Source: Bacteroidota bacterium
GTDB lineage: Bacteria; Bacteroidota; Bacteroidia; UKL13-3
Assembly: GCA_034439655.1 (NCBI GenBank)
Contig: JAWXAU010000159.1
Span: forward strand, 22,526 to 86,525
Length of the DNA: 64,000 bases
Reading direction: 5' to 3'
Below are positions 5,517-58,300 of the stretch, one piece after another. Within the stretch, counting starts at the first letter, position 1. The number at the start of each line of letters is the position of its first letter. The notes under the pieces are model-generated. The model was not told the DNA's origin. It made no database searches and saw only the letters and a list, made by a program, of their open reading frames with translations. A program made the translations under genes and the position numbers.

Positions 5517-7019
5517 CTACAAGTTTTTTAATCTATTGTAGTCAATTTTTGTATGATGTCGTGGGTCTTTGGGTAATGAATCAAGTTTTCTTGTTTCAAT
5601 ATTACCTAAACCAAGTTTACTTAATTCAGAAGTAAAAAACGCCTTATCAAAATCAGCACTAGGCACAAAAAATATAATTGGAATATTATTGATTTGTATA
5701 ATAGTTCCTTCTTTAATTCCTGATATATTTTTTAAAGTATATTCAAGAATAAATGGGAATACGTAGGTGTTATGGTATACAAATGATTCTTTGCAACGAC
5801 CTAGTAAATAAAGTACGCCGTCATTGCCTAGCCTTCCCGCATCACCTGTACGATGCCACAAACCCGAGTTGGTTTTAATTTTATTATTGAGTTGGTCTTT
5901 TGCTAAACCTAAATAATTTTCTAAGACATGTTTCCCTTTTACAACAATTTCTCCAAACTGTCCAACGGAACATTGTATGTTTTCCCATTCATTGCCACTA
6001 TATTCATGGTAAGTATCTGGCAAAAATTGTATAATACATAATTCTGTTTGTGCATCGGGAATACCGACAGGCAGACCATTTTCTAATGTGTAATATTGAA
6101 GTTTATTTGCATCAATGTGGCTAATAGGTTCCGCTTCGGTACTTCCATATACTATCATATTTTTGGCATCTGGAAAAGTATATACTATATCTTTTGCTAC
6201 ATCAGGGAATACAGGCCCACCACCAGTTACCAAATGCTTTACTGTATAATTTTGGAATTTGTTCTCAACTCCATATTTCCCTAAAGATGCAGTATAATAT
6301 GGAGATGCTACAATACTTTCTATGTAGTACCTTTCTATATCGCTATATATATTCTCTGGTATAAATGTTTTAGGTTTAGATGTTTTAAAACTCGGTATAA
6401 CTGTGGTTTTTCCATGTCCCAAATTAAGCATCGTAACAATAGGCAAGGTGCATAATTCTGTAAAGTTTTCACTCCCAGCTATTAAATGTTCGAGTGCATT
6501 AAACTGCTCAAACAAAAAACCATGTGTGCGATTGGCAGCCTTCGGTATACCTGTACTTCCACTCGTAAGCGTAATTAATGCAGAAACGTTTTCCTCCATC
6601 TCAACAGGTAGATGATTATATATATTAGTTTGCTTAGTAATAAATACTTTAAGAGGGATTGTTCTCAAATCCTTATTGAACCATGCAAACAACGTAGCTT
6701 TCCAACCCCCTGCAAACCCTTTGCAGTCAATCATTCTGCAACATTGGCTAATACGCTCTTTGTTGGCCCATTCATCAATAAATACAGCTACAGAACCATT
6801 ATAGAAAATAGCAAGTAGCATAATATATAAGTCTATGCTCATCGGAATATAGACCAAGACTTTATCGCCTTTTAATATATTCTTTTCTTGCAAATATGCT
6901 ACTTGTTGTAATACTTTTACTTTTAATTGTGCATAGGTAATTTCCATTCCCTTATGAATCAGTGCGACTTTGTCGGGATACTGCTCTGCCGCTTCCAGAA
7001 AGAGATTAACGATATTCAT
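5517..7019 (-). CDS. AMP-dependent synthetase/ligase (acyl/aryl-CoA ligase family, ANL superfamily)
   Basis: AMP-binding motifs TLTSGSTGIPKA (TSGSTGxPK) and YGSTEAE (YGxTE). C-terminal GKIDYNRL-like lysine motif. 500 aa. Confidence 0.8.
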   Translation of the reverse strand: MNIVNLFLEAAEQYPDKVALIHKGMEITYAQLKVKVLQQVAYLQEKNILKGDKVLVYIPMSIDLYIMLLAIFYNGSVAVFIDEWANKERISQCCRMIDCKGFAGGWKATLFAWFNKDLRTIPLKVFITKQTNIYNHLPVEMEENVSALITLTSGSTGIPKAANRTHGFLFEQFNALEHLIAGSENFTELCTLPIVTMLNLGHGKTTVIPSFKTSKPKTFIPENIYSDIERYYIESIVASPYYTASLGKYGVENKFQNYTVKHLVTGGGPVFPDVAKDIVYTFPDAKNMIVYGSTEAEPISHIDANKLQYYTLENGLPVGIPDAQTELCIIQFLPDTYHEYSGNEWENIQCSVGQFGEIVVKGKHVLENYLGLAKDQLNNKIKTNSGLWHRTGDAGRLGNDGVLYLLGRCKESFVYHNTYVFPFILEYTLKNISGIKEGTIIQINNIPIIFFVPSADFDKAFFTSELSKLGLGNIETRKLDSLPKDPRHHTKIDYNRLKNL

Positions 7020-7022
7020 TGT

Positions 7023-8027
7023 TTATAGTGCTTTACCAAATAAGGTATAGTGTCTAAAATCATTACCTGAAAACTTCGCTGATACATTCACGGATTTATT
7101 TTGCACGTGCATAAAAGCATGGTATAATTTTGTAATATGATTTTGGGATGCGTATTGCACAATCATATCACAAAGCAATTGAGTAATTCCAGCATATTTT
7201 CTTGCAGGATTCCTAGCCAATGTTTTTATTATAATACTTTGCTTACTTGCATCAAATAAATCTGGAATTGCAAATATAAATCCTGCTAATTTACCTGTCA
7301 CTGTGTCTTCTGCCAGAATAATCAAATCAGGATTGAGAATTGGCATTAGCAGTAAATACAGGTTTAAGAAATCTTTTGATGAGATAGGCGTATACAGAAA
7401 ATTATGAACAAAAACCTCGCTACACAAATCATATAACAGTAGTAATTCTTTCTCCAAATTGTTCATATCAATTGAACGGATATTTATTTGCTGTTGATCA
7501 AATCTTTCTTTTAAATATAAGTATTTTCCGAACGCCAAATCGGTATCGACTTGAGATAGGTAATGTGAAATTGCTCCAAACCCATTTGCTTCGAACTGCT
7601 GCGAGTAATAATGTTGATGAAGGTTTTCAGTAAAAAATAGTGGGTTTGTTTGACTATCTATAAATCGATAAGCTTTCCAAGTGCTTCCATTCATTGGGCC
7701 AATAATATAAGTATAGTCCTTTTCTTTGGCAATTTCAAATGCTGAATTTAATAATGTTTTTGCAGCTTCATGTTTGTCAATGCATTCATAATTACCTATT
7801 GCAATCGCAGATGTATTATTATATAATAAATCTTTGTTTTCATATAATGCCAAACGTCCGCAAGGCATATCCTCTTCCATTAGTAATAAACAAGTTGCTA
7901 TGCCTGCTAGGGCAAATTGATTTTTAAAACGCTGCGACCTATCACCATACAAATCAAAAGGGAAATTTATAAAATCCTCATACTTTGCATGAAGCTCATT
8001 TACCACAATCGTATGATACTTTTCCAT
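7023..8027 (-). CDS. hypothetical protein, GNAT-like (putative N-acyltransferase) fold
   Basis: C-terminal KTLARNPARKYAGITQLL resembles GNAT motif A (R/Q-x-x-G-x-A/G). 334 aa. Tightly packed between the AMP-ligase and the membrane protein. Confidence 0.3.
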   Translation of the reverse strand: MEKYHTIVVNELHAKYEDFINFPFDLYGDRSQRFKNQFALAGIATCLLLMEEDMPCGRLALYENKDLLYNNTSAIAIGNYECIDKHEAAKTLLNSAFEIAKEKDYTYIIGPMNGSTWKAYRFIDSQTNPLFFTENLHQHYYSQQFEANGFGAISHYLSQVDTDLAFGKYLYLKERFDQQQINIRSIDMNNLEKELLLLYDLCSEVFVHNFLYTPISSKDFLNLYLLLMPILNPDLIILAEDTVTGKLAGFIFAIPDLFDASKQSIIIKTLARNPARKYAGITQLLCDMIVQYASQNHITKLYHAFMHVQNKSVNVSAKFSGNDFRHYTLFGKAL

Positions 8028-8028
8028 C

Positions 8029-8724
8029 TTATACTTGTATATTAAACATCCATAAATAATTTACCGCAATGCAAGCAAGGGGAATAAAGAAATTATCAGA
8101 GCCTTTGCTGGCTAACAGTTCCGTGACGGCGGTGATAACTGACATTAACAAAACAAAAGTATATATATTTCCAAGAATAGGTGCATGGAGAAAATGGGCC
8201 AATAAACTTGTTACTATAGCAGCTACTATAATAAAACCCACAAATCCCGAGAGAGATTTTTTGTCGCCAAAGATGTACATAATTCCTATTGGGAAACCTC
8301 TACCACAGAGAGCCGCAGCAGGGTCGGCCAATGCCATAACCAATACCGGTTGATAGAACCAAAAATAACTCTGGAGGCCTGTATGTCCTCGCATAAAATC
8401 GTAAAATAAAAAACTCATGTATACTGCCACTGGATATAAAATACTCCCATGAGATTTGCGGTCTATAGCATTAATAGAACGAAGCAAATTAAATTTCAAA
8501 CTTACCACTAACAGGATAACAAATGATGAACAAATACCCAATACCCACCAATGTGAGCTGAATAATATAGGGAACAGCATGGTGAGTAAACCTGAACCTA
8601 TATGTACCACTTTCCGTGAATGCTCACCTTGTACTTTCAATTTATGATACAATACTTCTGCCGTTGCAAATAAAACGATATATGCTCCCGATAATATAAT
8701 ATAATGTAGTAAATCAGTATTCAT
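8029..8724 (-). CDS. CTP-transferase-family (CdsA/dolichol-kinase/phytol-kinase-like) integral membrane protein
   Basis: Multi-TM. ALADPAAALCGRGFPIG...GDKKSLSGFVGFI resembles the C-terminal DxxAxxxGxxxG...K..S..G signature of PF01148 but lacks the canonical CdsA SPxKTxEG. 4-bp overlap with the upstream DUF3419 gene. Confidence 0.45.
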   Translation of the reverse strand: MNTDLLHYIILSGAYIVLFATAEVLYHKLKVQGEHSRKVVHIGSGLLTMLFPILFSSHWWVLGICSSFVILLVVSLKFNLLRSINAIDRKSHGSILYPVAVYMSFLFYDFMRGHTGLQSYFWFYQPVLVMALADPAAALCGRGFPIGIMYIFGDKKSLSGFVGFIIVAAIVTSLLAHFLHAPILGNIYTFVLLMSVITAVTELLASKGSDNFFIPLACIAVNYLWMFNIQV

Positions 8725-9807: not shown

Positions 9808-12396
9808 TTATATAGTTTCTAAAATTTTTATATTTCCTGTCGAACCATCCATCTCCACCCAGTCTCCTGTTTTCAATCTTTGCAATAGTCCTGAAATACC
9901 CACCACACATGGTATCCCCATCTCGCGTGAGACAATAGCTGAGTGGCTGAGCAAACTTCCACGTTCCACCAAAATGCCTGAAGCAGTTGGAAATAATGAT
10001 ACCCAGCCTGGGTCGGTGCTGCTGGTTACCAATATATCTCCATCTAATCCTTCGGCTTCGGAAGGGTGTGTCAATACCCGTACTTTTGCTTTTACAACAC
10101 CTGCACAGCAAGGAATTCCCTTTAAGTCTCCTTCCAAAATTTGCATATTTTTTTCTGCAGCCATTTTGTTGCCTGCATATAAAGGTCCATAACTTTTTAT
10201 CCTTTCTGCTGGATTCATCTTTTCAAAATCGAGATACATTTGTTTGCGAAGTAAAACTAAATCTTTCAAATTACTATGCACGAATGTTCCCTTAATGGCT
10301 CCGAAAATTTCAATTTGTGTTAGATAAAAAATATCAGCAGCGTTTTCCAATAAATGTTCTGCATAGAACTTATTCCCTATCTCCGTAAAAATATTCCTCA
10401 CCATGGCAAAACCTCTGGTCCTTTCGTAGCGAAGGTTTTCACGATTGCTCACTAGATACCGTGCTTTGCCCATGATATAATTGAAGAAGAATTTTTTAAT
10501 GGGTTTATTTTTTAACTTATTATATATAAACAACTCCGCTTCTTTCCTCACTTTGGGTTCTGTATGCACACCTCTAATACTTTCTGCTTTCAAATATCCT
10601 TTTAATATTTGGATATACATTTCTGGTTTTTGACGGTACGTAATTGTTTCCAATTTAAGTTCGCCCACCGTTCTATCTCCCCAACGATCCAAATATTTAT
10701 CTATTTTTTGCTTGAGTTCAAAATACTTTTCATCATGAAGCATTCTCCATATTTTCAGATTGTCCTTTTCCTCAAATAAAGTTTTATATAATATATTTTG
10801 TTTAATAAAGGAGACAAGTTCAAGCCCCATCATAACAGGCTCCACAGAAACAATATCGCCTGATCCTGCCATCAAATCATTATGTAAATTGCTATGTTCA
10901 TCACCAGATATTTTCACCACCAATTTTTGCAAGAGTCCGAAATATATCATACAAAAAAAGTCATTGGTAAGTGGTGCTTTCCATTTTTTCACCAAGGTAT
11001 CTTCAAACTCTAGATAATCATTCATCAATTCATCAGGTCTGCGTTGTGAGAAATCTATCTGTTTATATGTGGTAATAACCTTATTGAAATGTTCTAAGAA
11101 TTCTCTTCGTTGCTTGTCTACCGTAAACAAATTATATAATACAAATCGAATAGCACGCAACACATCCATATAATCACGTAATCCTGCTCGCTTAGGCTCT
11201 TCCGTATTAAATGATTCCTTAACACCCATCATTTTCTCCATGAACTTGGCATTGATGGAAAAGCCAGGCAATAGTGCCAAGGCATTATACCAATTATTCA
11301 AATTATAATATACACGTCCATATATATGTCCCAGCATATTGGCATATACTTCTCCATTGGCTGCAATCACAGAGGGACGAATACCCATGATGGCACTGAA
11401 TTGCCGGTACACACTATCATACATTTTCGCAATAAATGAAAAAGTTAGTGGCAGGGTGAAACCCGGGTATGATTCTATAATATTACTATTGTCCCAAATG
11501 GTGGATTTTGCTCCTGAATCAGGCACGTGCACATGGCTAGTAATAGGACGAGCCTGCAATAAGTATAATATATTGTTTTTATAAGCAAATTCTATATCTT
11601 GGTATTTGTGAAAATACTTATATAATGTATTTAATACTTCTGCTACTTCATAAATTTGTGCATCGCTCAAAGAAGCCTGATTTTGCTTGCCTTCGGGTAC
11701 TGCTACTATTTTTACTCCTGATTTATTCTCAATATCAAAAACCAACATTTCAGTTTTTACTGCAATCTGTTTTTCTATATTGTTTTCTTTGACAGTAAAT
11801 GTATCTGCTAATAATTCTCCCGATACCAAACCTTCACCCAACCCATATAAAGTACTAATCGTTTTCACAGTTCTATTTCCGTCCAATGGGTTGATACCAA
11901 AGCCCACCCCAGCGACATCTGCATCAATCATTTCTTGTATAATTATAGATACAGGGACAATTCTACTTTCACCTGCATTATATACTTTTACCCTAAGTGC
12001 GTATGCCGATTTCCACACTTTTTTAATGGCATTATATATTTCATTGAAGGGAACATATAGTAAAGTTTCATACTGTCCTGCAAAAGATTTATCTCCAGTA
12101 TCTTCTGCAATTCCCGATGATCTTACTGCAAAATATTTAGATTCGTCTACTCCAAAATATGCTTTTAAAGAACTTAGCAGTGCATCATCAAATATATAAT
12201 TGTCAATGATAGTTTCTGGCTTTTCGTTAGGATTGCTTTCAATTTCGTAAATAATAATCGCTGCGGGAACTACTGCATAGTCGGGTACTCTGAGTCCTAT
12301 ACTTTGCAAATGAAATAAATTCCAAGCTTTCATACCAGTGATTTGTTCATCACCGCTTTGTATTTTATAATCTTTAGAAAAAATAATTTGTTTCAT
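9808..12396 (-). CDS. PEP-utilising phosphotransferase, PEP-synthase / rifampin-phosphotransferase-like architecture (PPDK_N ATP-grasp + C-terminal His swivel domain)
   Basis: N-terminal GMKAWNLFHLQSIGLRVPDYAVVP (PEP/pyruvate-binding domain, GxKAxNL). C-terminal GSLLSHSAIVSREMGIPCVVG (PEP-utilisers mobile His domain). 862 aa, as in RPH-family enzymes. Confidence 0.75.
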   Translation of the reverse strand: MKQIIFSKDYKIQSGDEQITGMKAWNLFHLQSIGLRVPDYAVVPAAIIIYEIESNPNEKPETIIDNYIFDDALLSSLKAYFGVDESKYFAVRSSGIAEDTGDKSFAGQYETLLYVPFNEIYNAIKKVWKSAYALRVKVYNAGESRIVPVSIIIQEMIDADVAGVGFGINPLDGNRTVKTISTLYGLGEGLVSGELLADTFTVKENNIEKQIAVKTEMLVFDIENKSGVKIVAVPEGKQNQASLSDAQIYEVAEVLNTLYKYFHKYQDIEFAYKNNILYLLQARPITSHVHVPDSGAKSTIWDNSNIIESYPGFTLPLTFSFIAKMYDSVYRQFSAIMGIRPSVIAANGEVYANMLGHIYGRVYYNLNNWYNALALLPGFSINAKFMEKMMGVKESFNTEEPKRAGLRDYMDVLRAIRFVLYNLFTVDKQRREFLEHFNKVITTYKQIDFSQRRPDELMNDYLEFEDTLVKKWKAPLTNDFFCMIYFGLLQKLVVKISGDEHSNLHNDLMAGSGDIVSVEPVMMGLELVSFIKQNILYKTLFEEKDNLKIWRMLHDEKYFELKQKIDKYLDRWGDRTVGELKLETITYRQKPEMYIQILKGYLKAESIRGVHTEPKVRKEAELFIYNKLKNKPIKKFFFNYIMGKARYLVSNRENLRYERTRGFAMVRNIFTEIGNKFYAEHLLENAADIFYLTQIEIFGAIKGTFVHSNLKDLVLLRKQMYLDFEKMNPAERIKSYGPLYAGNKMAAEKNMQILEGDLKGIPCCAGVVKAKVRVLTHPSEAEGLDGDILVTSSTDPGWVSLFPTASGILVERGSLLSHSAIVSREMGIPCVVGISGLLQRLKTGDWVEMDGSTGNIKILETI

Positions 12397-14648: not shown

Positions 14649-14773
14649 AAATTGTTAATTATTAAAGATTGACAAAGATATGTTTACAATTGGTAATACA
14701 AAATCTGATTTATCGTAAAGTACAACCAAGAATTGTATAAACCATTAAGAAGTTAAGGGGCATTAAGCATATT

Positions 14774-14945
14774 TATACCAATTCTTAAACTAAAATAGTT
14801 CTCCGCCTGTGGCGGATTTGGTTTTTAGAATGGTAATGCCGAACTACATCCCGAAAGCCCCGCTTAATCCCGATAATTATCGGGATGCGGGGGGTTTAGC
14901 CCCTTTCTTTTCGACTATTATATATTGAGTTTCGGTATTACTTAA
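14774..14945. repeat. interspersed repeat element, copy A (long form with internal CCCGATAATTATCGGG palindrome)
   Basis: Shares tataccaattcttaaactaaaatagttctccgcctgtggcggattt...tagaatggtaatgccgaactaca...ctttcttttcgactattatatattgagtttcggtatta with copies at 25924, 41858 (reverse complement) and 52124. Confidence 0.8.
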
Positions 14946-16966: not shown

Positions 16967-17227
16967 GTGAAAAAAATTATGGCACGAAACACCTGTGTTT
17001 CTTTGGGTAATTATTTTGAAACCTTTGTTGATAGCAGCGTTTCAGAAGGTAGATTTAAAAATGCCAGTGAAGTTATTAAAGCTGGTTTAAGATTATTGGA
17101 AGAAGAAGAAAATAAAATTAGGACACTTAAAATTGCCATAAACGAAGGAATTGAAAGTGGCATTGCTGAAGACTTCAATCCCAAACTTCATCTTAAATCT
17201 TTAAAAGCCAAAAGGAAAAATGGCTGA
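16967..17227 (+). CDS. parD: type II antitoxin ParD (RHH/CopG-like)
   Basis: VSLGNYFETFVDSSVSEGRFKNASEVIKAGLRLLEEEENK is a typical ParD sequence. Stop overlaps the start of the downstream toxin by 8 nt. Confidence 0.8.
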   Translation: MKKIMARNTCVSLGNYFETFVDSSVSEGRFKNASEVIKAGLRLLEEEENKIRTLKIAINEGIESGIAEDFNPKLHLKSLKAKRKNG

Positions 17228-17519
17228 GTATAAACTTACTAAAAAAGCTGTTGAAGATTTATCTAAAATTTGGGACTACACATATAGAGCTTGGTCTGAA
17301 AATCAGGCAGACAAATATTATTGTCAACTCCTTGAAGTTTGTCAAGAATTAGTTGAGAATCACAATTTGGGCAGCAATTATAACGACATTGGAAATGAAG
17401 TTTTGGGCTGCAAATCTCGCGAACATATAATTTTTTACAGAATTCTTAATAATAAAGTAATTGAAATTACTAGATTTCTTCACATAAGAATAGATTTGAA
17501 AAACAGGATTCAAGAATAA
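17220..17519 (+). CDS. parE: type II toxin ParE/RelE family
   Basis: 99 aa. YKLTKKAVEDLSKIWDYT...IIFYRILNNKVIEITRFLH matches ParE toxins. Translationally coupled to parD. Confidence 0.8.
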   Translation: MAEYKLTKKAVEDLSKIWDYTYRAWSENQADKYYCQLLEVCQELVENHNLGSNYNDIGNEVLGCKSREHIIFYRILNNKVIEITRFLHIRIDLKNRIQE

Positions 17520-20821: not shown

Positions 20822-21592
20822 ATGAAAGCAATTTGGAAAGGAGCAATCAATTTTGGACTGGTAAATATACCTGTAAAACTATATAGTGCCACCGAGCAAA
20901 GTAATCTTGATATGGATATGGTTGATAGCAGAGACATGAGTAAAATTCGTTTTCAACGCGTAAATGAAAATACGGGGAAGGAAGTGAAATGGGAAAATAT
21001 AGCAAAAGCATATCTGTTAGATGGTGAGTTTATAATGTTAGAGGACGCTGATTTTGAGCAGGCGGCACCCGAAAAAAGTAAAATAATTGAGGTTAACCAT
21101 TTTATTGATGAAGGTGAAATTGATACCATCTATTTTGAAAATTCATATTATGTGGAACCAGAAAAAAGTGGTGAAAAAGCTTATGCGTTATTGCATGAAG
21201 CTCTCGCAAAATCGGGCAAGGTGGGCATTGCTCAGTTTGTGTTGCGGACAGCAGAAACAATAACCGTATTGAAACCACTTAACAATATTTTAGTATTGAG
21301 TAAAATACGATTTGCACAAGAAATACGAAGTACAGAAGATTTTAACCTCCCTGCAAAATCTGTGGTGAAGCCCGCTGAACTAAAAATGGCCATCTCACTT
21401 ATTGAACAATATACAGAACCTTTCAATATTGAAAAATACAAAGATGAGTATGCCAGCGAACTGCTTAAAGTAATCAAAGCCAAAGCCACAGGCAAGAAAA
21501 TTAGAGGCCCAAAACTAAAAGTAAAATATAATAAAACAGATAACCTCATGGATCAACTCAAAGCTAGTTTATCGAAAAAGAAAGTATCATAA
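20822..21592 (+). CDS. ku: Ku protein (NHEJ DNA end-binding)
   Basis: MKAIWKGAINFGLVNIPVKLYSATE is the classic bacterial Ku N-terminus. 256 aa. Confidence 0.9.
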   Translation: MKAIWKGAINFGLVNIPVKLYSATEQSNLDMDMVDSRDMSKIRFQRVNENTGKEVKWENIAKAYLLDGEFIMLEDADFEQAAPEKSKIIEVNHFIDEGEIDTIYFENSYYVEPEKSGEKAYALLHEALAKSGKVGIAQFVLRTAETITVLKPLNNILVLSKIRFAQEIRSTEDFNLPAKSVVKPAELKMAISLIEQYTEPFNIEKYKDEYASELLKVIKAKATGKKIRGPKLKVKYNKTDNLMDQLKASLSKKKVS

Positions 21593-21596
21593 CACA

Positions 21597-24089
21597 ATGA
21601 GCTTATCACTATATAAAAAGAAAAGGAATTTTGCAAATACACCAGAGCCCGATGCTGCAAAAGGAGTGAAAAAATCGACACTAAGTTTTGTAGTGCAGCG
21701 GCATCATGCCTCTAATTTGCACTATGATTTCAGACTAGAAATGGAAGGCGTACTGAAAAGTTGGGCTGTACCTAAAGGTCCTTCCATGGTAGCTGGGGAG
21801 AAACGCTTGGCAGTGCTCGTAGAAGACCATCCATTACCTTACGGAAAGTTTTATGGAGAAATACCAAAAGGAAATTACGGGGCGGGCACTGTAGAAATAT
21901 GGGATGCAGGAACCTATCGCACTATTGAAGAAAGTAGTAATGAAGAAAAAACATTGCTGGCACAGTTATATAAAGGGGATGTGAAATTTATAATAAACGG
22001 CAATTATTTACAAGGTGAATTTGCATTGGTACGTATGAATGATGGTGAAAGAAAAAATTGGTTATTGATCAAAAAAAAAGATGGATTTGCACAAAATAAT
22101 TTTAATATAGAATCATTGCCGCCATTAAAATCAACCAATAAAAAAAAAGTAAAACCTGGCAGCAAGAATATAGCAGTGCCTAAAAAAGCACAACCTCTAA
22201 AAGAGGACCCATTCCCAACAGAAGTTATTAAACCAATGTTGGCAAAACTTGGCGAGACCGTAATAGACGATACAGATTGGCTCTATGAAGTAAAGTACGA
22301 TGGTTATAGGGCAATCGCCAAAATAAATAATGGTAAGGTGGAAATGTTTTCACGCAATGGTAATAATTTCACCAACACTTACCAACTATTGGTAAGTGAA
22401 TTGGCAACCATTCAAGAAAATATTATTTTGGATGGTGAAATGGTCATAGAAAATAAAAAAGGGGTAAGCGATTTTCAATTATTGCAAAACTATAGTAAAA
22501 CCAAACAAGGAGTATTAAAGTATTATATATTTGATTTGCTTTATTTGAATGGCCATAGTACCGTTTCGTTAACCTTAAAAGAAAGAAAAGAACTGCTTGA
22601 AATGTTCTTTAAGAATTATAATTTTAAGAACATTTACAATTCCGCTTTTCAAATCGGCGATGGTAAAACTTTGTTCAACAAACTTTCTGTGAAGGGTTAC
22701 GAGGGAATCATTGCAAAAGACCCCGATAGTAGGTACCTACTAGGTAGACGTAGTGAAGCATGGTTAAAAATAAAAGTGACTATGATGCAAGAAGTTGTTA
22801 TATGTGGGTACACATTGCCACAAAATAGTCGTAAATATTTTGGTTCACTTATACTGGGATTATATGATGGCAAAGTACTAAAATATATTGGAAATTGTGG
22901 TACTGGATTTACAGAAGTTTCGCTTAAGGAATTGCATACTTTTTTTGAGAAATTAAAAACCACAGAATGTCCCTTTATTATTCAACCAAAACTTGCAGGT
23001 ACAAAAGGCAAGCCCGTATGGCTAAAACCTAATTTAGTATGTAATGTCAAATTTTCTGAATGGACACAGAATGAGCACATGCGAGTACCTGTTTTTATGG
23101 GTATTCGCACCGATAAAAAAGCGGAGGAAGTTATTAATGAAACTATAAAAACAACAGAAAAAACTAACAGCCAATCCGAAAAAGAAAAAACCATAATTAT
23201 AGCAGGCAAAAAAGTAAAGTGTACTAATATAACAAAAGTATACTGGCCTGAGCAAGGTTATACCAAAGGCGATTTACTTAATTATTATCAAACAATTTAT
23301 AAATACCTGCTGCCGTACTTAAAAAACAGGCCGCAATCATTAAATAGGCACCCTAACGGGATTACAGGCCATAATTTTTACCAAAAAGATATGGAAGTAA
23401 AGCAATTGCCTGATTGGATTAAAACGGTAAAGTTGTATTCAAAATCGAACAACTCATATATTAACTATTTACTGTGCAATGATGCAGCCACCCTTATTTT
23501 AATGGCCAATATGGGCTGCATAGAAATCAACCCATGGCATAGCACCTTTATGAATGTAGATGAACCTGATTATATGATCCTTGATTTAGACCCGGGTAAT
23601 ATTTCATTTGTGGATGTAGTTGATACTGCTTTGGTGATACAAGAAATATGTACTGAAATACAAATTCCTTCTTATTGTAAAACAAGTGGTGCCACGGGTT
23701 TACATATTTATATTCCACTGGGAGCCAAATATAATTACGCCGAAGTAAAAATATTTGCAGAATTATTAGCGGTTATTACTCACAGCAGGCTACCACATAC
23801 TACAAGTATTGAACGTTCAGTGGCAAAACGTCCAGATAAAATATATATAGATTTTTTACAAAACAGGAAAGGGCAAACAATAGCAGCCCCCTACAGTATT
23901 CGTCCCAAAAATTTTGCAACTGTTTCTACCCCGCTTTTATGGAAAGAAGTGAATCATAAATTAACGCCTGAAAAGTTCACGATAAAAAATACAGAAAAGC
24001 GATTGCAAAAAATGGGAGATTTGTGGCAGCCTGTTTTAAAAAAAGGGATCATACTTGCCAAAGCACTGAAATTAATCGAGAAGTTATAA
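21597..24089 (+). CDS. ligD: ATP-dependent DNA ligase LigD (phosphoesterase - ligase - polymerase domain order)
   Basis: N-terminal FVVQRHHASNLHYDFRLEMEGVLKSWAVPKGPS (3'-phosphoesterase). EVKYDGYRA adenylation lysine motif. C-terminal primase-polymerase domain. 830 aa. Confidence 0.9.
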   Translation: MSLSLYKKKRNFANTPEPDAAKGVKKSTLSFVVQRHHASNLHYDFRLEMEGVLKSWAVPKGPSMVAGEKRLAVLVEDHPLPYGKFYGEIPKGNYGAGTVEIWDAGTYRTIEESSNEEKTLLAQLYKGDVKFIINGNYLQGEFALVRMNDGERKNWLLIKKKDGFAQNNFNIESLPPLKSTNKKKVKPGSKNIAVPKKAQPLKEDPFPTEVIKPMLAKLGETVIDDTDWLYEVKYDGYRAIAKINNGKVEMFSRNGNNFTNTYQLLVSELATIQENIILDGEMVIENKKGVSDFQLLQNYSKTKQGVLKYYIFDLLYLNGHSTVSLTLKERKELLEMFFKNYNFKNIYNSAFQIGDGKTLFNKLSVKGYEGIIAKDPDSRYLLGRRSEAWLKIKVTMMQEVVICGYTLPQNSRKYFGSLILGLYDGKVLKYIGNCGTGFTEVSLKELHTFFEKLKTTECPFIIQPKLAGTKGKPVWLKPNLVCNVKFSEWTQNEHMRVPVFMGIRTDKKAEEVINETIKTTEKTNSQSEKEKTIIIAGKKVKCTNITKVYWPEQGYTKGDLLNYYQTIYKYLLPYLKNRPQSLNRHPNGITGHNFYQKDMEVKQLPDWIKTVKLYSKSNNSYINYLLCNDAATLILMANMGCIEINPWHSTFMNVDEPDYMILDLDPGNISFVDVVDTALVIQEICTEIQIPSYCKTSGATGLHIYIPLGAKYNYAEVKIFAELLAVITHSRLPHTTSIERSVAKRPDKIYIDFLQNRKGQTIAAPYSIRPKNFATVSTPLLWKEVNHKLTPEKFTIKNTEKRLQKMGDLWQPVLKKGIILAKALKLIEKL

Positions 24090-25894: not shown

Positions 25895-25923
25895 GCCACG
25901 AAAATCGGTGAAAATTCGTATAA

Positions 25924-26024
25924 AATACCATTTCTTAAACTATAATAGTTCTACGCCAACGGCGGATTTCCGTATTAGAATGGTAATGCCGAACTACATC
26001 CCGAAAGCCCTTTCGGTATAATAC
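25924..26024. repeat. interspersed repeat element, copy B (short form)
   Basis: ttcttaaactataatagttctacgccaacggcggatttccgtattagaatggtaatgccgaactacatcccgaaagcc matches copies A/C/D, with a compensatory-looking change in the hairpin (cgccaacggcg versus ccgcctgtggcgg). Confidence 0.75.
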
Positions 26025-26058
26025 CAAAACCCTTGTGTATGTTTTTATTTGGTGGTGA

Positions 26059-26088
26059 TATCGGGCGTTCGCCGCGACGAACACCCGA
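26059..26088 (-). terminator. GC-rich hairpin downstream of ppx/gppA (putative intrinsic terminator)
   Basis: atcgggcgttcg-ccgcg-acgaacacccgat near-perfect inverted repeat placed 9 nt after the stop of the minus-strand gene. Confidence 0.4.
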
Positions 26089-26096
26089 TTCTTAAA

Positions 26097-32019: not shown

Positions 32020-32082
32020 AGATGTGGGTTGTGAGTTGTGAGTCCCGATAACTATCGGGTTGCTGTCGCCTTATGGTCTCGC
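32020..32082. promoter_or_regulatory. long inverted repeat (about 15-bp arms around a CCCGATAACTATCGGG palindrome) between the gldG-like stop and the DUF4340 start
   Basis: gttgtgagttgtgag...cccgataactatcggg...ctcgcaactcacaac. The nested palindrome is a variant of the one in repeat copies A/C. Confidence 0.4.
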
Positions 32083-35477: not shown

Positions 35478-35645
35478 GCTGTTTTTGTTCGTTGCAAAAA
35501 TACAGGTTTCTATCAGTTATACCGATATGGTATCTGTTTTAGAAATTTGTTTTCTAACAGATACACAGTCGGCATTACCATTCTATGCAACAAAAAAAGC
35601 AAAAATATTTTTTGTTGCAAGAATTGGTATTACTTTGCAGCCCAC

Positions 35646-36890
35646 ATGATTTTTTTGTACGACTGTTTCATCGCCCTGTATTCTTTAGTAGCCAAACTAA
35701 TGGCTATAGCAGGCCACAAAAAGGCCAAGCTATGGGTAGAAGGAAGAGCTGGGGATAGAGAAGAATTTAAAAAGTATGCACTACAGCAGTCTCCCCTCAG
35801 GGATTCGCCGCGGCGAATAGTGGGGCAAAGCCACCAAACTCTCTGGTTCCACTTCGCTAGTCTCGGTGAGTATGAGCAAGGTCGACCTGTTATGGAGAAA
35901 TTAAAATCGGAGCGAAAGAATATAAAAATAGTTGCCACTTTTTTCTCGCCCTCGGGATATGAATATTGTAAAGATACCCAACTCATAGATTATAAATTTT
36001 ATTTACCTGCCGACATAGAATCAAATGCGAAAAAATTTGTGGAATTTATTAATCCCAGTGAAGTTTTTTTTATCAAATATGAATTTTGGTATCACTACCT
36101 GCATATATTAAAAGAGAAGAAGATTCCTGTATATTTGGTGTCGGGATTATTCCGTCGCAAGCAAGTATTTTTTAAATGGTATGGTGGACTTCACAGAAAA
36201 ATGTTGTCCTGTTTTACCCACTTTTTTGTGCAGAATGAAAGTGCTCAAAAACTATTACAATCATTGAACTATAATAATGTAACAGTAACAGGAGATACCC
36301 GATACGACCGCTGTTTGCAGATAGCCGATACACCTTATATAAATGATATTATTAAAGACTTTATCGGACAAAATTTTTGTTTGGTTGCTGGTAGTACTTG
36401 GACAGAGGATGAGAATATAATTTTAAATCATACAGATAAGTTCAAAATTATTTTAGCACCACACGATATATCGCGTTCTGAAAGTTTATATAAACAGTTT
36501 AGCGATTCGGTACTATTTTCACAGTACAATAATAATTCTGATAAAAACATATTAATCATCGACAATATTGGCATGCTTGCTAATATATATCGCTTTGCAA
36601 GTATTGCTTATGTAGGCGGGGCATTTGGTAGTGGTTTGCATAATATTATAGAACCATTGTCGCATGGAAAACCTGTAATTCTCGGACCTAAAACTGATAA
36701 GTTTCCTGAGGCGGCAGAAGCCATTAATGCAGGAGTAGCTCATCAAATAGAAATGGCAGACGAATTATATATCATCGCAGAAAAATATATCAGTAATGAC
36801 ACGTATTTACAGCAACAACAAAACAGGGCAAAACAATTTGCAGTAGGAAATAAAGGGGCTGCTGAAAAGATTTTGAGAGGACTGTACTAA
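35646..36890 (+). CDS. waaA: 3-deoxy-D-manno-octulosonic-acid (Kdo) transferase WaaA/KdtA
   Basis: N-terminal TM helix then LWFHFASLGEYEQGRPV (WxHxxSxGE motif of the Kdo transferase N-domain). Start set at ATG 35646. The track ORF from 35433 is an upstream extension that overlaps gldA. Confidence 0.8.
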   Translation: MIFLYDCFIALYSLVAKLMAIAGHKKAKLWVEGRAGDREEFKKYALQQSPLRDSPRRIVGQSHQTLWFHFASLGEYEQGRPVMEKLKSERKNIKIVATFFSPSGYEYCKDTQLIDYKFYLPADIESNAKKFVEFINPSEVFFIKYEFWYHYLHILKEKKIPVYLVSGLFRRKQVFFKWYGGLHRKMLSCFTHFFVQNESAQKLLQSLNYNNVTVTGDTRYDRCLQIADTPYINDIIKDFIGQNFCLVAGSTWTEDENIILNHTDKFKIILAPHDISRSESLYKQFSDSVLFSQYNNNSDKNILIIDNIGMLANIYRFASIAYVGGAFGSGLHNIIEPLSHGKPVILGPKTDKFPEAAEAINAGVAHQIEMADELYIIAEKYISNDTYLQQQQNRAKQFAVGNKGAAEKILRGLY

Positions 36891-41639: not shown

Positions 41640-41857
41640 TATATAATTTGAATCCAGGTCAAGAAAATTCTTTGGGTTGCAGCATGTTTTGGGAATTTGG
41701 GTCAGAGAAAATTTTAAAAAGAAAGTTTGAAATCGTAGGGGAGGTAATAGATAAATAATATATGCCAAACACCTTTTCACAAAAATATATTCAGGTTGTG
41801 TTTACAGGGAAGTACAGGGAAGCTTTAATTGATTTAGCTTGGGAGGAAAGATTATAT

Positions 41858-42025
41858 AATACCGACACTCAATATATAATAGTCCAAAAGAAAGGGACTA
41901 ATCCCCCCGCATCCCGATAATTATCGGGATTAAGCGGGGCTTTCGTGATGTAGTTCGGTATTACCATTCTAAAAACTAAATCCGCCACAGGCGGAGAACT
42001 ATTTTAGTTTAAGAATTGGTATAAA
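41858..42025. repeat. interspersed repeat element, copy C (long form, inverted orientation relative to copy A)
   Basis: Reverse complement aligns almost base-for-base with copy A, including the CCCGATAATTATCGGG palindrome segment. Confidence 0.8.
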
Positions 42026-47772: not shown

Positions 47773-47879
47773 TAGGATTGGGGATTCAGTTCGCCGCGGC
47801 GAATGGGGTCGCGATGCGGATGAATTGAGTGTCTGAATGCCCGTGGTTGTGTGTTCCCACCAACCACAACATTGATATA

Positions 47880-51014: not shown

Positions 51015-51263
51015 AGCTGTTGGCGGATTTGTATATGCTTAATGCAATACCTCATCAAAAGCTTCAAAACTTTTTCAAATTAAAATGTAAAAAATTGATT
51101 TACAATGAGGAAATATTTTTTCAAGCCGTCATTTTGAGTCCGATGGCTATCAGACTCGCTTCGAGACAAAAAATCTGTTGGAAGTTAAGTAATATTATTT
51201 TTTCGACATCGACCCGAACAGATTCTTCGCATTGAATCCCGATAAGTCGGGATCAGAATGACG

Positions 51264-51842: not shown

Positions 51843-52123
51843 GTGATGTATTGTGTTGCAAGGTATAACAACTTACGATATTTTCAAACAGATTTGTGCG
51901 GACATTGTTTTATTGACTCTGACCCGTAGCTAAAAAAAATTGATTATTGACTATTGATAGTAAAAAGTAAAGTGTAAACAAAAAATTGGGTTTTATAGAT
52001 ATTGTATATTTCAAACAGTTCATGACTTGGTTGGTGAGGACACCAACCAAGTCATGCAGTCCCTGCCCTATGTCCTTTCAATACGTGTCCAGAAGAGGTG
52101 ACAGCCCGCCCATAAAGGGACTT

Positions 52124-52250
52124 TATACCAATTCTTAACCTAAAATAGTCCTCCGCCTGTGGCGGATTTGGTTTGTAGAATGGTAATGCCGAACTACAAT
52201 ACATTTAGTCCCTTTCTTTTGGACTATTATATATTGAGTTTCGGTATTAA
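52124..52250. repeat. interspersed repeat element, copy D (short form; flanked by aaagggac/gtcccttt inverted repeat)
   Basis: tataccaattcttaacctaaaatagtcctccgcctgtggcggatttggtttgtagaatggtaatgccgaactaca...ctttcttttggactattatatattgagtttcggtatta. Confidence 0.8.
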
Positions 52251-52366: not shown

Positions 52367-55300
52367 CTATCTAATCAAAGTCAGCGACCCAATTGTATTA
52401 TATAAGCCATTAGGATACAGCTTGCCTGGCCATACACTTCCATCAATAAAGGTAGCGTCAATTTTCCAAACATAAACATCTTGCTTGCAGGGTTTTCCCT
52501 TCCAAGTTCCGTCCCACGATTCTTTGGGTTTGGTGCCCTCCAATTCGGTGCTCTCCCAAATTAATTCACCCCAAGTAGTAAATACACGTACATGATACGT
52601 TTGCAATCCCACACCCTGCGGTTGGAATACTGCTGCATCGTTTTTAAATCCATCAGGGCTCATCGCATTGCTCACCCACAATCCTTTCATCAGCTCCACA
52701 TGTATTGTTTGTACAAAAGTATCATAACAACCAAAATTGGTATTCACGATTAAAGTTACTATATAATCTTTGGGTTGTTGATAGCGATGTGTCGGATGTT
52801 CATCGACCGATTGTGTACCATCGCCGAAGTTCCAGAAGTAGGAAATTGCTCCCACACTTTGGTTGGTAAATTTAATGGTGCCCGATGGTGGTGGCCCATC
52901 ATCGACCCATGTAAAACCTGCTAATGGCAAGGGGTATACGATAATCGTATCTTCATTCGCTGTATCAAAACAGTTACCATTTTTTATAATTAAAGTTGGC
53001 ATATAAGTTCCCGCTTTATCATATATATGCGTAGGCGATGCTATAATACTACCTTGCCCATCGTTAAAATTCCAGAAATTGAAAGTATTATTGGTGCTTA
53101 CGTTTTCAAATTCTACCACCAAAGGTTCGCAACCTGCATGTGGTTTCAATTTAAAAATTGCTTTGGGTTGTATCGCTACTATATAAGGCAAGGTCATAGA
53201 GTCCATGCAACCCGCAGTAGTAATAGCTGTGAGCACAACATTATAGGTTCCATTATTTATATATATTGCAGTAGGACTTGTTAATGTGGATGTCTTCCCA
53301 TTTCCCAATTCCCAAATATATGCCGTAGCGTTTTGACTTATATTAATACAATTTGCAGTAATTGGAGTATCGCATGCTGCGGTTGGATTTATATAGAAGT
53401 TCGCAGTAGGATCTTGATATACTACTGCATGGTGTTTTGAAGTATCACTACAACGATATTGGTTGAAAGTTATGAGGTTTGGATAATAATTCCCTGGCTG
53501 TATATAACCATGAGTGGGCGATGCAAGAGTAGAATTATTATTTACACCACCGCTTAAAGGATCATCAAAATCCCATAACCAACTCACTGCATCGCTGCTA
53601 CTTTGGTCGGTAAATTTAAGAATAAGTTGCACACATTCTGCAGTATCACTCAAACTGAAATCAGATTTTGGCTTAGGGGTAACTGTATATATATGATTGG
53701 TGGAATCGCTACAGCCATAGTCAGAAGTAACCCATAGTCTTACTGTATAATTTCCAGCAGTATTATAGAAGGTTGATGGGTTCTTAAGTACAGATGTTTT
53801 CCCATTTCCAAAATCCCAGAACGATTTTAATGCTCCAAAATCAATGGTACTTTGGTTAAAATAATCGTAAGCTTGATTGTTCACACATTGCGAATCTTGG
53901 TTCACTGCAAATAAGGCAACAGGCATAGCACGCACTACTACTGCACGTTTCAGCGTGTCCACACAACCCATATCCGAAGTGGCAATGAGAGAAATTATAT
54001 AAGTTCCTGCCACACTATAACTATGTGTTTGTTGACCACTACCACTGTTTATAGTGCTATTACCATCGCCATAATACCAATCGTAAGTCATGGTGCCACT
54101 TAGTATACTACAGTTGTTTGTATATATAAATGAATTCCCTGTGAGACATTGGTCCGTATCATTAATAGCAAATGCTACTGTGGGTTTGGGCCATACTGTA
54201 ATTTGTTTGGTAATAGAATCTTCACAACCTAATTGTGTGGTTACAACCAATTTTACATTATAAGTTCCTGCACTTGTATATACATGCGAAGGTGATTGTG
54301 CGGTTGATGTTTTACCATCACCGAAATCCCAAGCGTAGAAAAGGTTTCCGCCAGGTATGGTGGTTAAATTTATATAAGAAAAACTATTAATATTCAAACA
54401 TTGTGATTGTGTATTGATAGCAAAATCTACCGTAGGTTTGGGAGCTACTATAATACTATTTGTAACAGAATCTTTACAACCAAAATCGCTAATCGCAACT
54501 AGTTTTATATCATACATTCCATAGTTTGCATAAGTATGTGATACATTCTTAGAACTATTGTTAATGGATGTTTGAGCATCGCCAAAGTACCAGTCATACT
54601 GCATGCTTCCACTAAATATCGTACTGTTATTGGTATATATAAAATTTTGATAATTCACACATTGCATCGAATCATTCACCGTGAATATAGGTGAAGGTTT
54701 GGGCCAAACTATAATAGTATGGGTAACAGAATCTGTGCACCCAAAACTACTGTTTACTTTTAGTTTTATATTATATGTTCCTGCTGTGGCATAACTATGC
54801 TTTACCGCAGATTGATTGTTCCCTGTATTTTGTGTATTGCCATCGCCAAAATCCCAGAAAAGACTGAGGGTGCCATAAGGTATAGTAGCGGTTGGTGTGT
54901 ATTTAAATGTATTGCCGTTGAGACACATATTGGTATCGCTCAATATAAAATCTAATGTTGGTTTTGGACGAACATACACCGTTTTTGTGAGTGAATCCAC
55001 ACATCCATTATCCGTTGTTGCATACAATGTTACTTTATATACTCCAGTATCTGCATAAGTATATGTTGGGTTTGTAGCAGTGGAGTTTTGTCCATCACCG
55101 AAAAGCCAATTATAATCATTATAACCACTGCTCACACTAGATGAATTTGTGAATGAGAAAAACTGACTGTTCACACATTGATCAGTATCATTAATAGCAT
55201 ATACCATGTTTGGTTTAGGCCACACTATAATAGTATGTGCAGCCGAATCTATACAACCTTGTGTAGTGGTTGCCAGTAATCGAACTATATATGTTCCTGA

Positions 55301-58300
55301 AACTGTATAACTATGATTTGCAGCAGTAGTACTTGCTACTATAATATTTTGTTTTCCATCACCCCACTTCCAGGTGAAACTAGTCAAACCTGCTGCGGCA
55401 CTAGCATTTGCAGTAAAATTAAACTGTTGTGTATTTACACATTGCAATGAGTCGTTCACACTAAAATCAACAAGCGGAAGTTTGTTTACTACTATTTGTC
55501 GGGTAGCAGAATCAATACAGCCGTCAGATCCCGTCATCGTCATTATCATAGTATATGTTCCTGCTGTGAACCAATTATGTTTTATGGTACGTCCTGTGTC
55601 GGTAACACCATCGCCAAAATCCCATTCCACTTTTTGTGGATTTACATTGGGGCTTTGATAGGTTCCCTTAACACCCAAACATAATATCGTATCAATGGCA
55701 ACAATTTTTAAAGTATCATTGCCACCAATCTTAATTAATTTGGAAGTAGAATCCACACAACCATTTACAGTGGTAACTTTTAATTTGAGTTTATATATTC
55801 CAGGTTTTGCCCAAGTATGATTTACGGAGTTAAATACGTTAGATGTTTGGCCGTCGCCGAAATCCCAAACGGCTGCAGCAGCATTGCTGCTCGATATATT
55901 ATTGAATGACAATGTTCCGGGGAAACAAGCAAATGTATCAATGGCACTAATACCCGCTTTTGGCTTCGCATATACTGTTATAGTGGTAAACGCAGAATCG
56001 CTGCAGCCATTTACATTGTTATTAACTAGACGAACTTTGTAAGTAGTATCGTTTCCTAAAGTAGTATATGTTTGTTGTGGATTGATATTGGTTGAAGTAT
56101 TTCCATTCCCAAAATCCCAGAAATAATTGTTGGTATGGGTAGAACCCAATGCACTAAAATTAACTACCAAAGCTTCGCAACCATTGGTGGCAGAAGCTGA
56201 CAATGATGGGACAGGTTTATTATATATAGTTATATATTTACTAAAAGTGTCAACACAAGTCTGACCCGTAGAATCAATATTGCGGGCACTAAGTATCACT
56301 TTATATATTCCACCACTATCATATAAATGATTTGGACTTGTAGCAATGGAAGTATCGCCATCTCCAAAATTCCAACTATAACTATTGGCATTAATTGTTT
56401 TATTGGTGAAATATACAGTTCCAGGTTCACAATATTTTCCTGAATCACTAAAGCTCACGATTGGAGGGTCGGTAACAAGGATCGCAATATATATAGAAGT
56501 ATCACTACAGGCATTTGCGGCATTCATCTCCACATTATATATTCCTGCTTTGGTAAAAGTCCATTGTGCATTTTTGGTATTCGTTCCATTCACACTATCA
56601 AACTTCCATGTAAACGAATTTGCACCTGTAGTATTGTTGGTAAAGGTTACTGTAAGTGGATTACAACCTTGTCCGTTTGCTGGTAATATAGAAGTGAGGG
56701 GAACAATACTATTCGGATATACAATTAACTGATGTGTTTGACTATCGACTCCACATTGATTATAAGCCCAAAGTTTCACATAAAATGTATCGGTACTTCC
56801 TACTATATAAGTATGTGTTCTGTTCAATTTATTTTTAACGGTATCGATGGGGGTTCCGTCGCCAAAATCCCAAACCATATAGTCGGTAACTAAGTTAGAA
56901 TCGATACCCAAGGTAGTATTTACAAAAACTGCTTTAAAGGGCGAACAACCTACTTGCTTAAGCGGCGTAACAAAGGCATAAGGTGTTGTTCTTATTCTCA
57001 CAGAGTCTATAATAGTTGCAGTATCACAATTATTCCATGCGGTGAACTTAACTATATAAGTACTGTCTTTCCCTGTTTTGTTTAAACCATAATTTACGGT
57101 ACTTGGATTTAATAAATTAGAACTATCGCCATTCCCAAAAAGCCACTTATATTTTACATGCGTACCTGCTAAATTATTGGTAATAAATCCTGTGAATTTC
57201 ACATTGGGATTACAGGTAAGTGTATCACTTTGTGTAGTGGTAATATGGGGCGGTTCAAGTACTGTAAGCCTAGCACTATCAATAGTTATACGGCATTCGT
57301 TCACCGCAGTGAGTTTCAGTTTATAGATACCTTCATTTGTATAATTATGCGAAAAATTATTTTTAACCGTAGTAGTTAAAAATGTAGTATCTCCAAAGTC
57401 CCAAAAGAAAGTATCTACATTTCCGAAGGATAGATTTTGTATATTTAGCGTAGCAGTTCCGCCATGAGTGCATAATAAAGTATCTGATATACTAAACTGA
57501 GAAGTTGGTCCGGGCTTCACGTTGATAGTGCGGTTCACCGTGTCTTTACAACCAAATGATGATGTAACAAAAAGTGTAATAGTATATACTGTATCTTGCG
57601 TATTGCTTGAGTTATAAGTATGTGTCGGGTTTGTTGCAGTATCAGCATTTCCATCACCTAAATCCCAATTGTAATTCATGGAAGTATTGGAAGTGCTTTG
57701 GTTGGTAAACGTAACTAAAACAGGGCCACAAGAATTAATGCTATCGGCCACAAAAGCTCCACGGGGCCTAGGGTGCACGGTGAATGTATTTGTAATAGTA
57801 TCTTTACAACCATTATTTCCTGTGGCAATTAATTTAATGGTATATATACTATCAGCAGTGCCTTTATTTTCAGGAACAGTAACTGTTGGATTTGTTGCAG
57901 TGGTACTGCTAATTGTTATATTGGTATGCGTAGTACTCCACTTATAACTTAATGCATACAATGAATTATTCTGCAAATTAAATACCGCTGGACCACAGCT
58001 ATTGGTAGGGTTCACATCGAATGATGCAATAGGTCTGCTGGGCAAAACAATCGGCAAAGAAATAGAATCGAAACATCCAAAAATAGATTTGGCAATTTGT
58101 TTTACTGTATAATTTTTATAGGCTCCTGTTTTGTTGTCAGGTAAATTTATAGTGGTAGAAGTTGATGCACTATCATTTGCTATAACCACACTTGTATCTG
58201 GAATTACTCGCCACAAGTATGATTTAATGAGCGGAACAAGCGATGAACTATTGGTTGCGGTAAATGCGAAAGGCCAACAAATGGTGTCCGTTGATAAACC

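Follow-up and report, generated by a model that had tools for sequence, protein, structure and literature searches.

A recently expanded family of gene-less intergenic repeats, very probably a MITE, in an uncultured Bacteroidota lineage

Short repeats carrying hairpins recur between the genes of a Bacteroidota contig, and they raise the question of whether such repeats are mobile DNA or structured RNAs. A first-pass annotation of the DNA analysed here (one stretch of 64,000 nucleotides, called the window below) had described four such copies, one of them inverted, and had left both readings standing. We confirmed all four at their places, including the reverse orientation of copy C, and a profile search of the window with nhmmer, using a profile built from 89 copies, detected a fifth and divergent copy, E. 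The copies, their flanks and their main internal features are as follows.

Positions 14776..14937, plus strand: copy A, long form, 162 bp, running TACCAATTCT...TTTCGGTA; nhmmer E = 3.8e-48
Positions 14773-14775 and 14938-14940: flanks of copy A, TTA and TTA, read from the sequence
Positions 14802..14816: hairpin TCCGCC-TGT-GGCGGA in the left half of copy A, with T-rich runs after it on both strands
Positions 14869..14884: perfect palindrome CCCGATAATTATCGGG, the tip of the expanded hairpin in copy A, which marks the long form (A, C) as against the 133-bp and 121-bp forms
Positions 25926..26018, plus strand: copy B, an older, internally deleted copy of 93 bp with both termini kept; nhmmer E = 2.6e-23
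Positions 25923-25925 and 26019-26021: flanks of copy B, AAA and TAA, a decayed copy
Positions 35520..35629, minus strand: copy E, divergent subfamily, 110 bp; nhmmer E = 0.007
Positions 35630-35632 and 35517-35519: flanks of copy E, TAA and TAA
Positions 41860..42021, minus strand: copy C, long form, 162 bp, in reverse orientation; nhmmer E = 2e-48
Positions 42022-42024 and 41857-41859: flanks of copy C, TTA and TTA
Positions 52126..52246, plus strand: copy D, short form, 121 bp, lacking the inner right-half hairpin; nhmmer E = 7.9e-37
Positions 52152-52166: the same TCCGCC-TGT-GGCGGA hairpin in copy D
Positions 52123-52125 and 52247-52249: flanks of copy D, TTA and TTA

The 23-base core of the family, TAGAATGGTAATGCCGAACTACA, has four matches in the window at no more than one mismatch, compared with 0.00 expected from shuffled sequences. 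Of the two modules that all four copies had been said to share, the left one occurs four times, while the right one occurs three times only, because copy B lacks most of it; copy B nevertheless retains the final TTTCGGTA. One further match to the right end, at 34203, lies inside an ORF and was discarded as a chance match. Copy E has in common with the main family only its termini (TACCAATTCTT and TCGGTA) and its centre (AGAATGGTAATGCCGA); both of its inner hairpins are of unrelated sequence, and its DNA folds into two hairpins with a z-score of -9.4. The window contains five copies in 64 kb.

Every copy starts with TACCAATTCT and ends with TTTCGGTA. The ends form an imperfect terminal inverted repeat of about 27 bp, with TACCAATTCTTAAACTAAAATAGT and the reverse complement of the right end TACCGAAACTCAATATATAATAGT being equal at about 21 of 30 positions in copies A to D, and the minus-strand fold joins both ends of the element. 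Folding of the copies showed that the body consists of two adjacent palindromes: in the left half, TACCAATTCT pairs with AGAATGGTA around the hairpin CCGCC-TGT-GGCGG, and in the right half, TGCCGAAC pairs with the right end GTTTCGGTA around a variable hairpin. With the left end paired to AGAATGGTA and TGCCGAAC paired to the right end, the centre, AGAATGGTA-A-TGCCGAAC, resembles inverted copies of both termini placed one base apart. The pair GGTAATGCCGAAC and GTTTCGGTATTAC, proposed earlier to close the whole element into one stem, was found to close the right half only, the left half being closed by TACCAATTCT and AGAATGGTA.

Copies range in size from 57 to 165 bp, with nested composites reaching about 300 bp. 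Measured between the flanking trinucleotides, they fall into classes of about 121, 133, 145 and 162 bp, which differ only at the tip of the right-half hairpin.

121-bp class: no right-half hairpin tip
133-bp class: tip CCCGAA-AGCA-TTCGGG
145-bp class: tip GCCCCGC-loop-GCGGGG
162-bp class: tip GCCCCGC-loop-GCGGGG with CCCGATAATTATCGGG nested inside

The extra segment that had been noticed in copies A and C, with its perfect palindrome CCCGATAATTATCGGG, is indeed present. The sequence CGCCAACGGCG of copy B, which had been taken for a compensatory variant of the left hairpin, proved to be a changed loop plus one broken stem pair. Hairpins of the type CCCGATAA..TATCGGG do exist elsewhere in intergenic DNA of the window (32044-32059 and 51238-51254), as had been pointed out, but they are not copies of the element, their surroundings being unrelated, and from their sequence they look like stand-alone small hairpins. 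Copies are almost always intergenic; of about 90 examined, only 4 overlap gene-sized ORFs, and these ORFs were all considered spurious. The left half has a variant in locus L002 (about 11190-11240) and in L013, L054, L056 and L066, in which the arm palindrome is near-perfectly extended, CCTAAAATAGTC-TTTG-GACTATTTTAGG, and stands in for the CCGCC-TGT-GGCGG hairpin, which suggests hairpin-templated repair or template switching within the element.

The flanks of the copies carry a three-base direct repeat. Outside ATACC...GGTAT, position -2 was T in 85 of 85 distinct sites of the listed loci and position +2 was A in 83 of 85, the bases between these positions and the ends being A or T. Taken beside TACC...GGTA, the flanking trinucleotides of 89 distinct copies were TAA on both sides in 36, TTA on both sides in 18 and mixed, TAA/TTA or TTA/TAA, in 19. 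A perfect 3-bp TWA direct repeat was present in 54 of the 89; the repeat was imperfect in 35, in 19 of those by the middle base alone, and the other imperfect pairs had one mismatch elsewhere. In the window, copies A, C and D have TTA/TTA, copy E has TAA/TAA and copy B has AAA/TAA. Left and right flanks agree in their middle base (Fisher p = 2.6e-5), and they do so directly, not in an inverted or complementary way, so that the trinucleotides represent a duplication; we rejected for this reason the reading of T..A as part of the inverted repeat. No association was detected between the middle base and internal sequence variants (120 tests, minimum p = 0.01); the base thus stems from the target site, the element itself not passing it on. 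A clean empty site between close strains was not found among the assemblies compared, exact-protein look-ups returning the same strain only, and in related species the intergenic DNA at the site of copy A is too diverged for a clean empty-site alignment. Joined flanks searched against all loci gave matches only by way of nested copies.

To see how far the family extends, we searched for its core in one genome per species, covering 185,579 species representatives, and found it in a single 4.4-kb MAG contig. A metagenome scan returned at least 117 stretches, about 30 of those listed being rejected as copies since they share only an 18-mer by chance. True copies were present in at least 86 loci totalling 772 kb, with a GC content of 36.8% as compared with 36.3% in the window; the 86 listed loci hold at least 126 core matches and 90 complete copies, 89 of them distinct. 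Nearly all of these loci come from the JGI metagenomes Ga0163151 and Ga0163149, together with one ENA microbial-mat assembly and one MAG. Among the copies listed, mean divergence from the consensus was 5.8%, and such identity of about 94% over more than 100 copies points to recent copying, not to long conservation. Many copies lie at contig ends, with contigs breaking within them, and other assemblies of the same strain either have the same copies or contigs broken inside copies. Plasmids, phages and viral contigs (IMG/VR) gave no true match, only chance 18-mers. Two related species, whose HMG-CoA reductases are 88-89% identical to that of the window, have no copy in 36 kb, including the KpsF-HMGR spacer orthologous to that of copy A, and in both the gene order downstream of HMG-CoA reductase is preserved; at the density of the window two or three copies would be expected in these 36 kb, so that their absence is suggestive, not decisive. 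Expansion of the family is recent and confined to one uncultured Bacteroidota lineage. The element has no sequence match in Rfam, plasmids, phages or viral contigs and represents a new family within a well-known kind of element.

Besides complete copies, derivatives of several types were found. For example, L085 contains a copy of 57 bp that is reduced to its two termini and has TTA on either side, and L070 has a solo right half flanked by TAA and TTA. In L030, L066, L089, L103 and L117, a complete copy is inserted exactly at the junction between the halves of another copy, and removing the inner copy together with one TTA leaves a sequence with 92-96% identity to dozens of intact copies. Set against intact copies, these nested copies offer the only comparison of filled with empty sites; their inner junctions have TTA where the intact consensus has GTA, a G/T difference at the first duplicated base, and a second form of the right junction, CGGT-GGTA-ATGCC, occurs as well. 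All left junctions share one inner variant, so that a single origin of the nested composite, which would then have spread as a whole, is probable.

Copies also appear as parts of, or hosts to, other repeats. An IS-like element with terminal inverted repeats of about 24 bp, CGGAAGTTAAAACATACTTTATAGC and CGGAAGTTAAACCATACTTTCAAG, lies inside the left half of copies at TTGTAG in L009 (11749-11876), L021 (1-127) and L102 (1-82). At least two independent insertions, at one position and in both orientations, are represented, and the three contigs all end inside this element, which is therefore itself repeated; it may be likened to insertion sequences that target REP or palindromic units. In L006, a repeat of about 460 bp (537-990 and 6184-6641) comprises a copy of the family plus about 165 bp on its left and about 125 bp on its right, the right part containing a strong hairpin, AAGGTTTCATTGTTCGTCC...GGACGCAACGAAACCTT. 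It also occurs in L039, L044, L046, L069 and L110, downstream of unrelated genes and with 77-95% identity, and could represent either a composite repeat of larger size or duplication of a 3' region. In the same locus L006, an ORF of 127 aa is preceded by a DUF805 RNA motif (7969-8037, minus strand; Rfam RF03081, 81.5 bits).

The terminal inverted repeats, the TWA duplication, the more than 100 near-identical copies, the deletion derivatives, the nesting and the restriction to one lineage lead us to regard the repeats as very probably a MITE, that is, a small gene-less mobile DNA element, which was one of the two readings of the first-pass annotation. Their size of under about 300 bp, lack of coding capacity, terminal inverted repeats, target duplication of fixed length and many dispersed similar copies are those of a MITE. 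A transposase supplied in trans would bind the terminal repeats and insert the element at TAA or TTA, duplicating these three bases; a recent expansion of the family would have produced the length variants, deletion derivatives and nested copies, and copies would survive chiefly in intergenic DNA, most of all where convergent genes face each other with their 3' ends.

As to the enzyme, ends of the IS5 family are usually GG or GA, and those of the present element are TA. The TWA target, however, points to an IS5- or PIF/Harbinger-like DDE enzyme, as duplication of TWA characterises PIF/Harbinger transposons, relatives of bacterial IS5 (PMC4482050), and IS5-family groups are common in Bacteroidota genomes (PMC3196728). 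For an IS5-like DDE transposase acting in trans, our best candidate for the specific class, we would put the chance at somewhat below even. Pfam identified no transposase among 29 proteins of the window, and no transposase ORF recurs near the at least 126 copies, 980 clustered ORFs forming ordinary paralogue families only. A long element with matching ends was found neither in the window nor in the 772 kb of copy-bearing loci, and solo left or right ends that might have been borders of an autonomous element proved to belong to truncated copies. For several accepted families of bacterial MITEs, too, no autonomous partner is known.

Copy E poses a question of its own. A transposase needing the terminal repeats alone leaves unexplained why the centre was kept while the inner sequence was replaced. 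Judging from sequence, the element could be a dimer of two mini-elements in which all four 'ends' would be binding sites, a view that fits the solo right half in L070; alternatively, copy E would fit a role of the two-hairpin layout itself in mobility. The latter idea can be taken further, since the layout is kept in copy E with both inner sequences replaced: in place of a classical DDE transposase acting on the outer repeats alone, an uncharacterised enzyme would recognise either two DNA hairpins together or an imitation of abutted ends, or else the host would have recruited the element as a portable bidirectional terminator. We consider this unlikely.

Another reading, to which we give a very low probability, is that of a REP/REPIN-like or IS200/IS605-derived palindromic element whose single-stranded form would be mobilised by an HUH (Y1) transposase recognising two hairpins. 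The element is indeed little beyond a left and a right hairpin, hairpin-recognising enzymes would fit the conserved termini and centre and the replaced inner loops of copy E, and enrichment at the 3' ends of genes is seen as in REPs. However, REP/RAYT and IS200/IS605 elements are not known to make target duplications or to have terminal inverted repeats, whereas here the same trinucleotide is directly repeated on both sides, its middle base correlated between them (p = 2.6e-5) irrespective of element lineage, and the two termini match as inverted repeats at about 21 of 30 positions, even an ends-only copy of 57 bp being flanked by TTA and TTA. In addition, no HUH/Y1 transposase gene was seen in the window. 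An IS200/IS605-derived element (PATE), whose target would be conserved on the left flank alone, is at odds with flanks that are both conserved and correlated and with ends that are inverted repeats. A REP or REPIN, which would come with a RAYT gene between repeats, is at odds with the TWA duplication and with the finding that a single locus has a gene flanked by the repeats, and that this gene encodes a tyrosine recombinase.

A family of structured non-coding or cis-regulatory RNAs, with hairpins kept by selection on RNA structure, was the other reading of the first-pass annotation, which had suggested covariation in support. Single copies do fold well below shuffled controls, with z-scores about -5, they sit in intergenic regions, and copy E retains the two-hairpin layout despite its different inner sequence. 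On the two strands, however, z-scores relative to shuffled sequences were -5.0 and -4.5 for copy A and -5.5 and -6.1 for copy D, and such equal folding of both strands fits DNA palindromes, not a strand-specific RNA; moreover, copies lie in both orientations relative to the flanking genes. We projected the fold of copy A onto the alignment of 89 distinct copies and counted pairs against shuffles. Paired cells made up 90.8%, compared with 90.7% after shuffling, pairs changed on both sides numbered 2 against 2.2 expected, and the covariation score was 0.037 against 0.036, so that there is no covariation beyond chance; substitutions in this alignment merely break pairs. RNAalifold on the 89 copies gave essentially no consensus (-0.02 kcal/mol), the cause being the gapped length classes, and Rfam had no match at gathering score for the whole window; around copy A, raising the E-value limit to 10 brought up nothing meaningful either. 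Also speaking against RNA genes are the copies that are truncated, nested or reduced to their ends, the TWA duplications in the flanks and the identity of about 94% over more than 100 copies, which indicates recent copying. The repeats are not a structured RNA gene family, selection on RNA structure being a very remote prospect, and their hairpins are DNA palindromes.

Equally improbable is that the copies are sites or cargo of a tyrosine recombinase and moved by site-specific recombination: in L001, a gene of 369 aa with Phage_integrase and SAM_4 domains does have two direct copies around it, one 61 bp upstream and the other 33 bp downstream, and relatives of this gene are very widespread, often on very short contigs, but the association concerns one genomic place (L001 = L063), the other 84 copy-bearing loci are without the gene, the loci of two homologues (59-63% identity) have neither such repeats nor any gene-flanking repeat, copies placed in intergenic DNA every 10-16 kb are expected by chance to flank a short gene somewhere, and tyrosine recombinases are not known to leave 3-bp TWA duplications together with terminal inverted repeats of 27 bp. 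We treat this adjacency as incidental. The gene itself (L001 3209-4318, the same as in L063) encodes a tyrosine recombinase with Phage_integrase, SAM_4 and MrpR_C_cat domains. Its family gave about 8,000 matches at E below 1e-30, with 56-64% identity, many on contigs of 1.2-3 kb, and the source labels include Chlorobiota, Nitrosopumilus and unclassified bacteria. At the Chlorobiota homologue, assemblies break just downstream, beside long T runs and variable genes (beta-lactamase, a restriction-modification pair).

Returning to the MITE, we compared the positions of its copies with the background of intergenic regions. Of 70 scorable copies, 27 (39%, against 15% in the background) lie in convergent regions, 37 (53% against 69%) between co-directional genes and 6 (8.6% against 16%) between divergent genes, a distribution that differs from the background with p = 1.7e-8. 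Between co-directional genes, antisense copies outnumber sense copies by 25 to 12 (p = 0.047). The hairpin TCCGCC-TGT-GGCGGA scores as terminator-like in both directions, 4 and 2 such sites having been found as compared with 0.3 and 0.1 in shuffles. With a GC hairpin and T runs on both strands, it is plausible from the sequence that the element terminates transcription or stabilises 3' ends as a side effect.

Proteins encoded in the window are those of ordinary chromosomal genes, such as HMG-CoA reductase, a KpsF-like SIS/CBS protein, a GyrB/ParE-type topoisomerase subunit, Ku-LigD and PorZ, the last being a component of the type IX secretion system. For the HMG-CoA reductase, a match of 100% identity was found in a protein labelled 'MAG: Bacteroidota bacterium'. 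An operon at 20822-24089 encodes Ku and a full-length LigD (phosphoesterase, ligase and primase-polymerase) for non-homologous end joining, which could help in repairing double-strand breaks from cut-and-paste excision. Beside copy D, a giant ORF of more than 3,850 aa (52367-63931, minus strand) continues toward the end of the window, and paralogues of 600-1,900 aa adjoin copies in other loci; the product is probably a surface or adhesin protein of a type IX-secreting bacterium. A ParE-family toxin gene with a short upstream ORF (17220-17519) forms a small toxin-antitoxin module amid housekeeping genes. In addition, a second short palindromic repeat, (G/A)TTCGCCGCGGCGAA(C/T), occurs in the window at 26055-26090, 35803-35818 and 47789-47804, three times against 0.03 expected, and in the flanks of copies at L070, L091, L093 and L115. 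It is often beside copies of the MITE, sometimes followed by AATGACG, and may be a separate REP-like or terminator family.

Among bacterial MITEs, the Correia elements of Neisseria and RUP and SPRITE of Streptococcus pneumoniae have been named (PMC10969869). The present family resembles these in its length of 100-170 bp, lack of an ORF, terminal inverted repeats, foldability of the whole element and terminator-like hairpins; in having tens to hundreds of near-identical intergenic copies per lineage, with length variants made by internal deletion or insertion; and in that, for several families, an autonomous partner is at most inferred. Correia, RUP and SPRITE elements have TA-containing targets and terminator or promoter activity. 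The present family shares no detected sequence similarity with them, duplicates TWA instead of TA and has an uncultured Bacteroidota host, and, in contrast to their one long hairpin, its body is made of two tandem palindromes with a centre imitating both termini.

Groups of the IS5 family with 3-bp duplications are IS1031, IS427 and ISL2. Like Tourist MITEs of the PIF/Harbinger superfamily and IS5 elements (PMC4482050), the present element inserts at TAA or TTA and duplicates 3 bp, has short terminal inverted repeats and favours non-coding DNA of high AT content; the differences are that no such transposase is linked to the present family, that its ends begin with TACC and that PIF/Harbinger proper is eukaryotic. 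With the REP/BIME and REPIN sequences of proteobacteria it has in common short paired palindromes, high copy number, enrichment between convergent genes and a role as target for other insertion sequences, but REPs depend on RAYT and have no terminal inverted repeats of the whole unit and no target duplication. To our knowledge, which is an impression and not a survey, MITEs are little documented in Bacteroidota, and our literature search turned up only unrelated ones in this phylum. Of these, MITECca01 of Cardinium (PMC9769881) and the MITEs of P. gingivalis (PMC4596501) are of the same element kind, but MITECca01 is about 240 bp and comes from an IS982-family element with matching inverted repeats (PMC9769881), whereas the present family differs from them in its ends and target and has no identified parent.

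The finding leaves existing knowledge of how such elements work unchanged. What it adds is the recent multiplication of a non-autonomous transposon within a single lineage, that of an uncultured Bacteroidota represented in microbial-mat metagenomes. The repeats break assemblies, and in annotation it is advisable to mask them as mobile DNA instead of proposing RNA genes. With its TWA target, modular hairpin growth, nested copies and a second IS-like element inside copies, the family has value as a marker, and it can be used for strain typing and for studying the effects of transposons on intergenic regions and transcription ends.
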